Source: an uncultured Verrucomicrobiae bacterium
GTDB taxonomy: Bacteria > Verrucomicrobiota > Verrucomicrobiia > Chthoniobacterales > Chthoniobacteraceae
Direction of reading: 5' to 3'
Assembly (NCBI GenBank): GCA_963769025.1
Contig: CAVYKI010000009.1
Location: 64,001-128,000 of the forward strand
DNA: 64,000 nt
Shown: one piece after another, positions 46,266-64,000 of the stretch
Layout of the letters: every line of letters begins with the position of its first letter
How positions within the stretch are numbered: position 1 is the first letter of the stretch
Notes under the pieces: generated by a model
What the model was told of the DNA's origin: nothing
The model's input: only the letters and a program-made list of their open reading frames with translations
Databases searched by the model: none
Translations under genes and position numbers: made by a program

Positions 46266-47189
46266 CTAACGCAGCCAGCGCGCAATTTTCTCCGCGGCAG
46301 TGAAGCCGAGCAGCGCGTAGACGGCGCGGTAGCTGAACGGCGCTGCGGGGCCGGCGAGACGGATGAGGCCCTTCGCCTTTCTCTCTGCGTGCCAGGCCGC
46401 GGCTGCGGCGAGGTCGTGCTGCGCAAAGGTGCGGGACATTTCAAAGCACACGCGGCCGATTTCGCGGCGGTGCGTGTCAGTGAGGAGGCTTCGTTGCGCA
46501 AGATGTGCGAGCATGGTGTCGAGCAAGCCGGTGCGGACGTGGATGACGAGGAGCGGGTCCTTGCGGCAGACAGTGTCATTGCTCCAGATGCGATAGACGG
46601 CGCCGGGCGTCGGGGTGAATGTGAAGCGCAGGCCGGCCACAAGCGCGCGGAGGTAAAGCTCGTGTTCCTGGCAGCAGGGCTGGCCTTCCTTCCAGCCGCC
46701 GAGGCGCGCGAGGGCCTCGCGCCGCCAGAGGCAGCCGCCGGTCTGCGGGATGTGCCACCGGATCCATTGCGTGAAGATGTCCGCGTCCGGGTCGATGTCG
46801 CTCGCGGCCCGCGTGGAGGCTGTGGCGGACAATGTCTCGACCCAGACAGGGCTGTAGATGACATCGGCCGCACGGCCATTGTCCGCTTCGCGGAGTTGCG
46901 TGATGACTTTCGCGGGCTCGAGGTAATCGTCGGCGTCGAGGTATTGCACCCAGTCGCCCGTTGCGCTTTGGAGCACGAGGTTTCGCGCGCGGTTTCCGCC
47001 TTGGTGTCCGCTTTCGATGAACTTGATGCGGTCGCCAAAGCCCCTCGCGATTTCCGGTGACGCGTCGGTGGACCCGTCATCCACGACAATGACCTCGGTC
47101 TCCACGTCCTGTTGATCGAGCGCGCTCTGGATGGCCTGCGCGATCCATCGCTCGGCGTTGTAGCAGGGGATGCCGACGGTGACTTTCAT
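46266..47189 (-). CDS. Glycosyltransferase family 2
   Basis: VGIPCYNAE, EVIVVDDGSTD, ARN, QYLDADD. Start overlaps the asnB stop. Confidence 0.92.
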   Translation of the reverse strand: MKVTVGIPCYNAERWIAQAIQSALDQQDVETEVIVVDDGSTDASPEIARGFGDRIKFIESGHQGGNRARNLVLQSATGDWVQYLDADDYLEPAKVITQLREADNGRAADVIYSPVWVETLSATASTRAASDIDPDADIFTQWIRWHIPQTGGCLWRREALARLGGWKEGQPCCQEHELYLRALVAGLRFTFTPTPGAVYRIWSNDTVCRKDPLLVIHVRTGLLDTMLAHLAQRSLLTDTHRREIGRVCFEMSRTFAQHDLAAAAAWHAERKAKGLIRLAGPAAPFSYRAVYALLGFTAAEKIARWLR

Positions 47190-63300: not shown

Positions 63301-64000
63301 GCGCAGAACTTCCGGCGCGCGGAGCCCCCGCCAAATGCCTGGGTCAGCGCCGCGACTTCGATTGCGTCGCCCAGCGGAGTGCCCGTGCCGTGCGCTTCGA
63401 CGCAGCCGATGCTTTCCGGCTGAACGCCCGCGAGTGCCTGGGCGAGGGCGATGGCATCAGCCTGCCCGTCAATGCTCGGCGCGGTCATGCTCACCTTGCC
63501 TGAGCCGTCGTTATTCAGCGCCCAGCCTTTGACCACCGCGTAGATCTGATCGCCCTCGGCGAGCGCGTCGGCGAGACGCTTCAAAACCACGACGCCGCAG
63601 CCGTGGCTGAAGACCGCGCCGGCCGCCTGCGCATCGAATGGCCGGCAGACGCCGTCGGGTGAAGCCATGCCGCCTTCACGGAAAAAGTAGCCGCGCGTCT
63701 GCGGAAAGGTGATGGACACTCCGCCAGTGAGCGCGGTGTCGCATTGATAGCTGGCGAGGCTTTGGCACGCGGTGGCGAGGGCGACCAACGAGGTCGAGCA
63801 CGCAGTATTGATGCTCAGTGCAGGGCCGCGAAGGTTCAGCTTGTAGGCGAGCCGCGTGGTCAGGAAATCCTTCTCGTTGCCCATCGTCACGATCAACTCG
63901 CCCACGGCATCAACGAGATCGCGCCGGGCGCGGACGAAACGCCCATAGCTGTTGAAGGACATCCCGGCATAGACGCCGATGAGGCCGGCGTAGCGCTTCG
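57318..64000 (-). CDS. Hybrid type I PKS-NRPS (KS-AT-ACP-C-A-PCP-TE), 5' end beyond the window
   Basis: Frame is open to the window edge (IGVYAGMS). KS: TACSTSL, EAHGTGT, KSNVGH. AT: FPGQGSQ, GHSVG, HAFHS. ACP: GFDSL. C: HHIACDGWS. A: TSGSTGIPKG, YGPTE, YRTGDL, KLRGFRIE, NGK. PCP: GGHSL. TE: GECVG, LLD, PGTH. Confidence 0.96.
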   Translation of the reverse strand, partial: KRYAGLIGVYAGMSFNSYGRFVRARRDLVDAVGELIVTMGNEKDFLTTRLAYKLNLRGPALSINTACSTSLVALATACQSLASYQCDTALTGGVSITFPQTRGYFFREGGMASPDGVCRPFDAQAAGAVFSHGCGVVVLKRLADALAEGDQIYAVVKGWALNNDGSGKVSMTAPSIDGQADAIALAQALAGVQPESIGCVEAHGTGTPLGDAIEVAALTQAFGGGSARRKFCALGSLKSNVGHLEAAAGAAGFIKAALMVRHGQIPASLHFETANPELKLDDSPFYVSPKTIGWPTGAGPRRAGVSSFGVGGTNAHVVLEEAPQQPATTAGRSMQLLTLSARSASALDQTARDLAAHLETHPAPSLADAAFTLQTGRQQFTQRRCVVAGSAAEAISALRAEAKLTRKDDRRETPVAFLFPGQGSQYPRMGAQLYASEPAFRAAFDIVADLLQPDLGLDLRDAVFSGNEEELRQTRITQPAIFATGYALAQMWLSFGLRPDALLGHSVGEYVAATLAGIFTVEDAARLVAARARLVQAQPGGAMLAVRLGESDAQEFVSEQLSIAAINSTRLCVLSGPAEAIAAVEAELAARNVSARRLATSHAFHSAMVAPVVAPFTEMVRAVRLGSPQIPFVSNVTGDWITSAQATDPAYWAGHVRAAVRFADGLGRLLDASGRALLEVGPGNALTQLARQHPAKAAAHEFAHTLAGETDEAATLATAQGRLWLAGVPLDWAGVHAGEIRRRVSLPGYPFERQRYFADLPEGTPLPLTASALDGEPLSTVPAGTAVAAAARETPTPNANSVTRGTAEQTALTRLTALLHELTGNDFSDTDPKTTLLDLGFDSLFLAQLIIVIQKRFGVQISILDFFDDLESLGALAAHLEKHMPQPGALAPEAPANPVTTSPAEKAAPVMPVARHGAVPIAEAQSEVWLACQRGPLASAAFNETCTVEFHGDFKIEAMQLAIQTVVDRHDTLRTSFSPDGETQTIAATLTLDVPVEDLSAQPAAERDRKLLAMRQAEGSRNFDLARGPLLAARIVKLTGEHHALIITAHHIACDGWSYDIVLRELGLVYTALCENRPHGLPAPMQMSDYQRWEEGQQRGAPFAADRAYWLDRFRTLPPPLDLPGDRPRPPQRSHAGSREYTIIPPALYHDAAQLGVKLGATPFAILLAAFKTLLFRLSGEHDFVVGVPAAGQNLAGGADLIGHCVNLLALRSTVGGAETFSDFLRTTRTGLFEAFEHQRFNFGQIIRHLPLPRDPGRVPLISITFNFNRPHTDLRFAALRHEILVNPRAAYQFDLSFNCYEAEYGDGGLRMDCDFNTDLFDAATIQRWLAHYRTLLAAIIAAPETPLSKLPLLNAAERAALIELGRGPANDYPADIALAELFRRRASAQPKAIALVENEKRFTYAEVEKRANQVATHLLGLGLKPGEFVGLRSERSARFVWEAVGVLRAGGAYVPVANDEPAERMRMIEETCAVLLLAREDYAGAGTAPVDLDVAATGPACLFFTSGSTGIPKGVVVPHRAVTRLVWNTNYVAHHDNCVVAFASNLSFDASTFEIWSALLLGGTLVVTPYEILLSPAALEAHFDKHKVTVTFLTTSLFNRTVQIAPAIFRRLRYVIFGGERADADCVRMVLEHGKPEHLMHAYGPTEATTFATCHDVAHADGASVPIGRPIANTDAFILDTRLEPVPHGVAGEIHLGGPGLAIGYHRDPQLTAERFLNTEFGRLYRTGDLARWLPDGTIEFLGRRDQQLKLRGFRIEPGEIEAALQRHPHIRHAAVVARTEDNDSRSLVAYVVPRSDARAVAGELREFLRVRLPAYMIPPAFVWIDALPLTPNGKLDQRKLPKPDAMAHSGSAPIAPRNEAERRVAKIWELVLGRGATSVRDDFFTVGGHSLLALQLLAEIRNESGIEIPVRRLFETPTIEGLAACMAGATLPAASAGNFLVPIQQGDPSMQPLFLVPGGWGAEIEFLVYGELSRQIDPARPVWGLKARGAGTPDLPHASVAEMAADYLREVRRIQPHGPYFLAGECVGGICAHEMACQLEQAGDSVALLMLLDTVVPAQRELNNHLAAEAQRLEDEERKRQAEARQRTMRRRLRHHLDQMSGLSLAEKLGYFSRWIVRRCKVSSARDAMAPGWHPRGQKDYPVTLLRHRLQPYHGTVTLLLDEESSRLYGNFGWDKVAVGGLETHILPGTHFTYIRDDAATTAAKLRELLTLATSELHHASATA

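Follow-up and report, generated by a model that had tools for sequence, protein, structure and literature searches.

Does the product of a hybrid polyketide synthase-nonribosomal peptide synthetase (PKS-NRPS) assembly line become part of a surface glycan when the line is encoded at the head of a glycan export operon? The question arises from a 64,000-nt stretch of DNA of a soil Chthoniobacterales (Verrucomicrobiota) bacterium (GCA_963769025.1, contig CAVYKI010000009.1, positions 64,001-128,000; hereafter the window, whose positions serve as coordinates below), in which a PKS-NRPS gene and a 4'-phosphopantetheinyl transferase (PPTase) gene run into wzm and wzt, the genes of an ATP-binding cassette (ABC) transporter, and on into a series of glycosyltransferase (GT) genes. 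We infer from gene context that the line and the glycan pathway are coupled, and give a probability of about one half to the reading that a short, polar acyl-amino acid made by the line decorates or caps an undecaprenyl-linked, ABC-exported O-antigen-type surface glycan. The original prediction, made from the window, had the unit anchoring, priming or decorating a glycan; decoration is retained here, and anchoring or priming has become less likely given an FkbH-type loader, two extensions only and a WecA-type initiator. Genes were called by Pfam and NCBIfam scans plus start-codon inspection; below, G000 is the source genome (83% complete), other G-numbers denote relatives or distant genomes, and L-numbers denote fetched loci.

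The eleven co-oriented genes that had been described are all present on the minus strand, in the predicted order (distances are to the next gene, negative values being overlaps):

57318..64000, minus, start at window-equivalent 64340: PKS-NRPS megasynthase, 2340 aa, with ketosynthase (KS), acyltransferase (AT), acyl carrier (ACP), condensation (C), adenylation (A), peptidyl carrier (PCP) and thioesterase (TE) domains by Pfam; -20 nt, an overlap other than the 4-nt ATGA
56666..57337, minus: Sfp-type PPTase, 223 aa (PF01648 and PF22624); gap of 9 nt
55769..56656, minus: wzm, ABC-2 permease, 295 aa (PF01061, 78.3 bits against a cut-off of 26.9); gap of 105 nt
54344..55663, minus: wzt, ABC ATPase bearing a carbohydrate-binding domain (CBD) at its C-terminal end, 439 aa (PF00005 and PF14524); TGATG, -1 nt
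53403..54344, minus: fkbM, FkbM-family methyltransferase, 313 aa (PF05050; TIGR01444, 101.9 bits); ATGA, -4 nt
52456..53406, minus: GT2 glycosyltransferase, 316 aa (PF00535); gap of 91 nt
51345..52364, minus: orf7, GT8-like GT-A glycosyltransferase, 339 aa, paralog of orf9, no Pfam match; ATGA, -4 nt
50209..51348, minus: GT4 glycosyltransferase, 379 aa (PF00534, PF13439); gap of 131 nt, the largest of the run
49166..50077, minus: orf9, GT8-like GT-A glycosyltransferase, 303 aa (AlphaFold model, Foldseek; DSD motif); gap of 99 nt
47186..49066, minus: asnB-type glutamine amidotransferase (starts MCGIAG), a three-frame reading, broken in the assembly; ATGA, -4 nt
46266..47189, minus: GT2 glycosyltransferase, 307 aa (PF00535, 100.5 bits), the last of the run

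Measurement bore out the close packing that the original prediction had read from the window: the megasynthase stop lies beyond the PPTase start, PPTase and wzm are separated by the same short spacer, four later junctions overlap (wzt/fkbM, fkbM/GT2, orf7/GT4 and asnB/GT2), and no gap exceeds the predicted ~130 nt by more than one nucleotide. A promoter or terminator dividing PPTase from wzm had been named as a point that would count against the prediction; a consensus scan of 45800-58000 gave no promoter-like sites and eight terminator-like sites (9.5 +/- 3.2 in shuffles), none of them in the PPTase-wzm gap. Thus the 20-nt overlap and the 9-nt gap tie the line, the PPTase and wzm together, with no promoter- or terminator-like site between them, and this speaks for a decorated glycan. 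A weak terminator-like site lies on the same strand past the last GT2 (46071-46057).

What the window shows is the downstream two thirds of a single large locus. The megasynthase (C9:121318-128340 on the contig) has its start codon 340 nt past the window end, and retrieving the upstream DNA, as had been proposed, completed its domain order as KS-AT-ACP-C-A-PCP-TE. Beyond it lie the rest of the line and a divergent operon:

Minus, upstream of the megasynthase: KS-AT-ketoreductase (KR)-carrier protein, 1568 aa
Minus: free-standing amino-acid adenylation domain, 541 aa (TIGR01733, 449.9 bits against a cut-off of 317.4)
Minus: acyl-CoA-dehydrogenase-like gene (FkbI, 1r2j, among its PDB matches)
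Minus: 3-hydroxyacyl-CoA-dehydrogenase-like gene
Minus: loader, 1363 aa, with DH, FkbM-type methyltransferase, FkbH and PCP-like carrier domains (TIGR01686)
Plus, opposite the line: WcaF-family polysaccharide O-acetyltransferase (219.6 bits against a cut-off of 192)
Plus, divergent operon: GT4 glycosyltransferase
Plus, divergent operon: WecA/MraY-family transferase (PF00953, 139.7 bits)
Plus, divergent operon: Wzy_C/O-antigen-ligase-family (WaaL-type) protein, 791 aa (Wzy_C, 74 bits)

The six line genes and the PPTase thus stand nearest the promoter in the wzm operon. In G000 the line was seen to have neither a regulator nor a transporter of its own, and no KpsE/KpsD-type gene was seen in the locus. 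Given the line genes flanked by a divergent wcaF-GT4-wecA-waaL operon, we regard the locus as an ABC-transporter-type O-polysaccharide locus with an embedded assembly line; together the two operons are predicted to encode every part that an ABC-transporter-dependent O-polysaccharide pathway needs.

The transporter itself has features of the O-antigen type. The Wzt signature YSSGMFVRLAF at residue 171 fits the modified O-antigen motif Y-S-S/T-G-M-x-x-R/K-L-A/G-F as quoted in the accessible text of PMC11539658, and the Wzt_C domain (PF14524) scores 33.1 bits (E 6.6e-8), barely over its cut-off of 30.4. The best NCBIfam names for wzm were Wzm/RfbD and KpsM, both under cut-off, with the KpsM match weak at 34 bits; wzt is the sole Wzt-type match at E<=1e-30 in G000. 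The Wzt signature, the Wzt_C domain and the surrounding GT, WecA and WaaL genes led us to reject a drug pump of the DrrAB type for wzm/wzt. According to the accessible text of PMC9445017, CBD-bearing Wzt transporters export glycans with a terminal cap.

We next ask what the line would make. Both of its KS domains retain Cys-His-His (TACSTS, EAHGxGT, NVGHL), its carriers have GFDSL/GGHSL and its C domain HHIACDG, and the A-domain core motifs and the TE nucleophile are present. Both ATs carry GHSxG and HAFH (GHSVG/HAFH in the megasynthase), the motifs of malonyl-CoA ATs, as opposed to the GYSxG type of ATs for ACP-linked extenders (PMC4207774), so that methoxy- or amino-malonyl extenders for these cis-ATs were rejected. 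In the loader, the FkbH domain scores 299.6 bits with TIGR01686 (cut-off 146.65) and has DCDNT at residue 852, followed by PP-binding at 1268-1328. The A-domain codes, read by alignment to LgrA with GrsA numbering, are DVWHFSLVDK for the free-standing domain, which we take to be a serine code, and DAFFIGATFK for the module, which is presumably closest to aliphatic amino-acid codes. From these domains, the product is predicted to combine a glycerate-derived starter (possibly methylated or dehydrated) with two ketide units, one of them in reduced form, and with an aliphatic amino acid; the FkbK/FkbI-like pair may act on a unit derived from serine. Because the loader is of the glycerate type, only two malonyl-type extensions follow and the A-domain codes are as given, we expect a short and polar product, not a lipid. 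The nucleophile of the megasynthase TE (57318-58160) is Cys (GECVGG) instead of Ser, as in 16 of 16 NRPS-type TEs of the clade; Cys-TEs are uncommon. Cys was also seen in the TEs of L090, L092, L131 and L095, and several outgroup TEs have Ser.

In the mechanism that we propose, the FkbH domain would load a glycerate-derived starter on the loader carrier, where the fused DH and methyltransferase domains would modify it, and the FkbK/FkbI-like dehydrogenase pair with the Ser-type A domain would provide or alter another C3 unit. The chain would then be extended by two malonyl-CoA-type modules, one with a KR, an aliphatic amino acid would be added, and the Cys-thioesterase would transfer the acyl-amino acid to the undecaprenyl-linked glycan, onto one of its sugars and in the simplest case onto an amino group. 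Wzm/Wzt would export the decorated glycan, ligation would take place in the periplasm, and the variable assembly line would act like a serotype cassette.

Does the pairing of line and glycan operon recur? C-A-PCP-TE homologs were present in 29 of 29 same-genus genomes (61 genomes searched); in three of them (G008, G020 and G025) only an A-domain protein of ~34% identity matched. For 21 genus genomes we fetched the DNA around the best terminal-NRPS homolog, and PPTase-wzm-wzt follow the line directly in 14 (G001-G005, G010, G012, G014, G015, G018, G019, G021, G023 and G026). At the far end of the line a divergent wcaF-like gene was found wherever that end was reached (G004, G012, G014, G015 and G019), followed by GT4, wecA and waaL as far as the fetched DNA extends. 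Among the remaining seven genomes, to which we return below, the glycan operon was located in five, away from that homolog, and it begins with PPTase-wzm in all five: upstream stands a single KS-AT...TE PKS in G007 and G017 (its TE with a Ser nucleophile), a divergent wcaF-like gene and no line in G016 and G022, and nothing recognisable in G009. G007 (C1:63346-84655) and G017 (C11:29935-51244) also carry a second NRPS/PKS-NRPS line, with a terminal protein of ~2750-2825 aa, downstream of and co-oriented with wecA and Wzy_C-ligase paralogs, so these two genomes have two pairings of glycan genes with an assembly line. Across the clade the line is of the FkbH type, a PKS-NRPS type of ~2800 aa or a single PKS-TE, and the types follow phylogeny. 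PPTase was not found in G008 and G020, whose loci (L153 13780-15729 and L155 1728-3441) show deletions with differing ends: they begin within waaL or wecA and stop within the first GT2, and each takes out the line, PPTase, wzm and wzt as one block.

A PPTase profile scan of one genome for each of 185,579 species, from which 80 loci were kept, gave a similar picture. In 28 of these the PPTase is at least 48% identical; all are Verrucomicrobiota metagenome-assembled genomes (MAGs), largely the genomes above and therefore not independent of them. PPTase abuts wzm in 28 of 28, with wzm following in 27 and adjacent but divergent in one, and upstream of PPTase stand a co-oriented PKS/NRPS (20 loci), a wcaF-like gene (five) or other arrangements (three). 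A wzm match adjoined PPTase in none of the 52 PPTase loci from other groups. One of the fetched loci, L095 of a Capsulimonadaceae MAG (Armatimonadota), has a PPTase 45% identical to that of the window and holds a second, unrelated NRPS-TE-PPTase pairing with sugar genes, in the co-oriented series A-PCP, C-A-PCP-TE (Cys), PPTase, GDP-mannose 4,6-dehydratase, epimerase/reductase and GT4 (1552-13003).

The loader architecture is common, with 1605 proteins at E<=1e-20 among the 8000 candidates scored; the same Pfam make-up was found in nearly all of the best 120 homologs, and their source names are only generic ('FkbH-like protein/FkbM family methyltransferase'). A loader profile scan yielded 80 loci, of which 11 belong to the Chthoniobacterales clade; the other 69 are from groups that include Acidobacteriota, Betaproteobacteria, Gemmatimonadota, Ignavibacteria, Opitutaceae, Rokubacteria, Cyanobacteria and Chloroflexota. 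The order loader, 3-hydroxyacyl dehydrogenase, acyl-CoA dehydrogenase, Ser-type A (56-71% identical) and KS-AT-KR-carrier is kept in 32 of the 69, and PPTase often stands directly upstream of the loader in non-clade loci. Records other than MAGs among the 80 include Zarconia navalis LEGE 11467 (L217, which stops inside the loader) and Rheinheimera sp. SA_1 (L228, where NRPS modules follow a partial loader and both the dehydrogenase pair and the first PKS are missing); the fetched DNA of neither contains the complete cassette. To find glycan genes we used a tblastn panel of 30 glycan proteins from the loci of this analysis, most distant flanks being screened by tblastn only. A panel match was present beside the loader in 21 of 69 non-clade loci, compared with 20 of 400 random 10-kb windows of G000 and three of 52 PPTase-centred loci of other gene clusters (two of 51 without a self-match). 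This roughly six-fold excess over controls of about 5% is indicative and not a statistic, because the genomes are related, the window sizes unequal and the panel drawn partly from the same taxa.

Several of these neighbourhoods were confirmed by Pfam. Three betaproteobacterial loci (L168, L185 and L213) have Glycos_transf_4, PPTase and loader co-oriented in that order, and a GT2 lies between loader and dehydrogenase in L201 and L210 (and, by tblastn, also in L203 and L205). Exosortase or Wzc/Wza/Wzy_C/GT4 loci beside the cassette were confirmed in four cases. For example, exosortase EpsH, DUF3485 and a PEP-CTERM protein are found upstream in L209, and Wzz/GNVR, GT4, Wzy_C and Poly_export downstream in L227. 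In L204 a PIG-L deacetylase, two GT4 and a gene resembling GINT1 lie upstream of PPTase-loader, and L195 has GT2, epimerase, GT2, methyltransferase, polysaccharide deacetylase and GT4 upstream. A further 20 kb beyond the cassette was fetched in five distant genomes (G061-G065): G061 has AsnB, Wzx-like, Wzc, Wza, a beta-barrel porin, four GT4, Wzy_C and a further AsnB, and G064 has exosortase, AsnB, AMP-ligase, hexapeptide transferase, methyltransferase, PPTase and GT2. Initiating transferases that recur beside the cassette, together with the two sugar deacetylases, suggest that an amino sugar is N-acylated while on a polyprenyl-linked intermediate. Neither inherited synteny nor a drug-pump role of Wzm/Wzt readily explains a cassette beside such differing export types (Wzm/Wzt; Wzx/Wzy-exosortase); the pattern would fit a product that becomes part of a glycoconjugate.

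A number of observations weigh against a decorated glycan. A TE normally releases a free product, the coupling is read from gene context, and transfer of the product to a sugar is our proposal. Seven of the 21 genus genomes (G007, G009, G016, G017, G022, G028 and G029) have their best terminal-NRPS homolog at another place, and in five of these the fetched flanks showed no recognisable glycan genes. The same operon can do without a line: PPTase-wzm adjacency held in every clade locus, and five of those loci retain PPTase-wzm-wzt-GTs with no line in place. Outside the clade, no wzm match was found in the fetched flanks of the 69 loci (10 kb; 20 kb more in five genomes), and three of the five distant genomes (G062, G063 and G065) have no glycan genes in the 20 kb beyond the cassette. 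From this spread across phyla without wzm, the assembly line appears to be an old, mobile unit independent of Wzm/Wzt. The original prediction had counted it as contrary evidence if homologous synthases usually occurred without glycan genes, and here the outcome is divided, since wzm was not found in the fetched flanks outside the clade and glycan genes do stand beside the cassette in the 21 loci, a count that uses related genomes and controls differing in size and taxonomy. Finally, the FkbM methyltransferase overlapping wzt could alone supply a methyl cap in G000, and the assembly-line product therefore need not be the cap.

Much of this would be expected if the line were an independent gene cluster in a variable hot spot of the O-antigen locus, its TE freeing a diffusible metabolite, its PPTase belonging to the line and read-through into wzm being incidental. 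The cassette is widespread with no wzm match in the fetched flanks; among close relatives the line is present, swapped or absent at the same spot; five of the seven lines that lie elsewhere have no recognised glycan genes in the flanks fetched; the line has a TE and a predicted product of small size and polar character; and the PPTase was not found in three genus genomes without any line, so it tracks lines. We nevertheless consider this unlikely. The line is co-oriented and sits exactly between the divergent promoter region and PPTase-wzm in 20 of 20 loci, has no regulator or transporter of its own in G000, and is joined by junctions that leave no space for signals, while glycan genes of unrelated export types adjoin the cassette elsewhere at about six times the control rate. 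Also doubtful is a glycosylated natural product, in which the GTs would decorate a polyketide/peptide aglycone and Wzm/Wzt would export a small glycoside or glycolipid, with wecA-waaL unrelated. The O-antigen-type signature and Wzt_C domain of Wzt disagree with it, as do the retention of the GT set in clade loci without a line and the recurrence, here and in other phyla, of an initiating transferase and a ligase/polymerase-family gene beside the cassette; yet exporters of the ABC-2/type V kind related to Wzm/Wzt move polyketide lipids (PMC11539658, accessible text), a GT2 lies inside the cassette in four loci by tblastn (two Pfam-confirmed), and the Armatimonadota locus runs co-oriented from NRPS-TE through PPTase, Gmd and epimerase to GT4. 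That the line makes a lipid on which the glycan is built or anchored, a role proposed for RkpA/WcbR, is very improbable, although type I PKS genes do occur in capsule clusters (PMC3908369, accessible text). We rejected this lipid anchor or primer for want of a fatty-acyl loader (there is no fatty-acyl-AMP ligase or long-chain loader, the loader being FkbH-type) and because only two extension modules follow, both with malonyl-CoA-type AT motifs; moreover, a WecA-type primer enzyme is present, and line-less loci keep the rest of the pathway. For the decorated glycan itself a broader version can be put forward only tentatively, and we think it improbable: a widespread multi-phylum class of glycans with a glycerate/serine-derived hydroxy-acyl-amino acid, moved directly by the Cys-TE onto an amino sugar of the undecaprenyl-linked glycan, which acyl unit in Chthoniobacterales would serve as an export cap read by the Wzt CBD, cassette swaps changing the serotype.

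How does the locus compare with known systems? RkpA and WcbR are monomodular, and their clusters are of the KpsMT type. The accessible text of PMC3908369 describes a type I PKS encoded among polysaccharide biosynthesis and export genes, but instead of a PKS-only enzyme in a capsule locus we find a multi-gene hybrid of several modules, including an NRPS module, with TE, FkbH loader and PPTase, in a locus with Wzm/Wzt and a WaaL-type protein. Extender subclusters for methoxy-, hydroxy- or aminomalonyl-ACP share with the line FkbH, 3-hydroxyacyl-CoA- and acyl-CoA-dehydrogenase-like genes, a carrier and a Ser-type A domain; examples are FkbG-K of FK520 and ZmaD/E/G/H/I/J/N of zwittermicin. They differ in that here DH, FkbM-type methyltransferase, FkbH and carrier are fused in the 1363-aa loader and the cis-ATs are of the malonyl-CoA type. 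A further frame is the capped ABC-dependent O-polysaccharide pathway of Escherichia coli O9a and Aquifex aeolicus, which, in the accessible text of PMC9445017 and PMC3482155, shares wzm, a CBD-bearing wzt and a methyltransferase adjoining wzt, and resembles the locus further in its WecA-type initiator, GT2/GT4/GT-A enzymes and Wzy_C/WaaL-type ligase gene; unlike there, a six-gene PKS/NRPS line and an Sfp-type PPTase head the wzm operon here. The accessible text of PMC9445017 names methyl, (methyl)phosphate and Kdo as known caps, none of which comes from an assembly line. [quoted passage not shown] The DrrABC exporter of phthiocerol dimycocerosate (PDIM) also pairs an ABC-2/type V exporter with adjacent polyketide synthases (PMC11539658, accessible text), unlike the present ATPase with its O-antigen-type signature and Wzt_C domain among GTs. 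In a literature search, no paper on a PKS/NRPS line within a Wzm/Wzt locus was found.

Odd acyl or aminoacyl groups are often present on O-antigens and exopolysaccharides, and for most of them the genes are unknown. If our reading is true, an assembly line built into a glycan operon would account for the making and the diversity of these groups. An 'orphan' PKS/NRPS cassette common in soil Acidobacteria, Verrucomicrobia, Betaproteobacteria and others would then pass from the antibiotic-like class to envelope biology, which would bear on genome mining and on how phages and predators recognise uncultured soil bacteria. Related lines beside sugar-polymer genes in several phyla would point to a little-known kind of decorated cell-surface glycan.

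The individual genes of the operon add some detail. Sfp-type PPTases are marked by an ACPS fold of two lobes with the Mg-binding GxD-x-E and W/F-x-x-K-E-A-x-x-K motifs, and in a 15-sequence alignment GVDxE and WxxKEAxxKA are invariant (D127, E129, W169, K172, E173 and K177); the same alignment set the start at 57337, the residue at which full-length orthologs begin. Its best NCBIfam match is HetI, at 151.8 bits under a cut-off of 370. The PPTase is not the sole Sfp-type enzyme of the genome, a possibility ruled out by a second ACPS-domain match on C10. Two AcpS-type matches, G000:C6:132349-132630 and G000:C8:2497-2778, have the same scores and ORF lengths on different contigs and may reflect a duplicated region or assembly redundancy.

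Compared with its relatives, G000 has gained fkbM, orf7 and a GT4: counterparts of fkbM and orf7 were not found by tblastn in the mapped loci of relatives. The GT2 at 52456..53406 is kept there at 58-76% identity, and a further GT2 that stands between wzm and wzt in most relatives is missing in G000. More distant clade members (L059, L060, L064 and L065) have two wzt genes per operon, one after wzm and one after a GT2-like gene, and G000 and its closest relatives have a single wzt. The start of orf7 is at 52364, preceded by GGAGGAAAGAGG. The two genes that had been called GT-A were upheld as such, orf9 by its AlphaFold model (pLDDT 84.9), whose Foldseek matches are glycogenin, LARGE1, XXYLT1 and WbbM (E ~1e-8, TM 0.5-0.69) and point to a GT8-type GT-A fold, and orf7 as its paralog (32% identity, E 9e-51, DSD motif in both). 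Pfam gave no match for either protein, and a PDB profile search with the orf9 alignment gave none at E<=10; in the protein Atlas the nearest clusters of orf7 are those of orf9. Orthologs of orf9 (49-85% identity) are present in every clade locus where the fetched DNA extends far enough.

The predicted asnB is present at its place but is not intact in the assembly. Three one-base insertions, close to 48236, 47880 and 47515, move the reading frame 0>1>2>0 and jointly restore it; none is within a long homopolymer, and the adjacent 7-kb and 4.7-kb ORFs are intact. Eight of nine orthologs are intact at 618-625 aa, and that of G004 is broken too. Contigs of other runs have one base fewer at 47516, 47879/47883 and 48231-48236, these contigs being fragments of relatives or near-identical strains (the best DNA sets share <=0.15 of sampled words), so that asnB may be a real pseudogene or carry a local assembly error. 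Beyond the last GT2, the window encodes a 1529-aa ThuA/F5_F8-type-C/DUF7133/HEAT/cytochrome c protein on the plus strand (41267-45856), and in the closest relative, G014 (L020 12728-15667), the operon is followed by the convergent genes lpxB, a GFO/IDH/MocA oxidoreductase and lpxI (lipid A genes).

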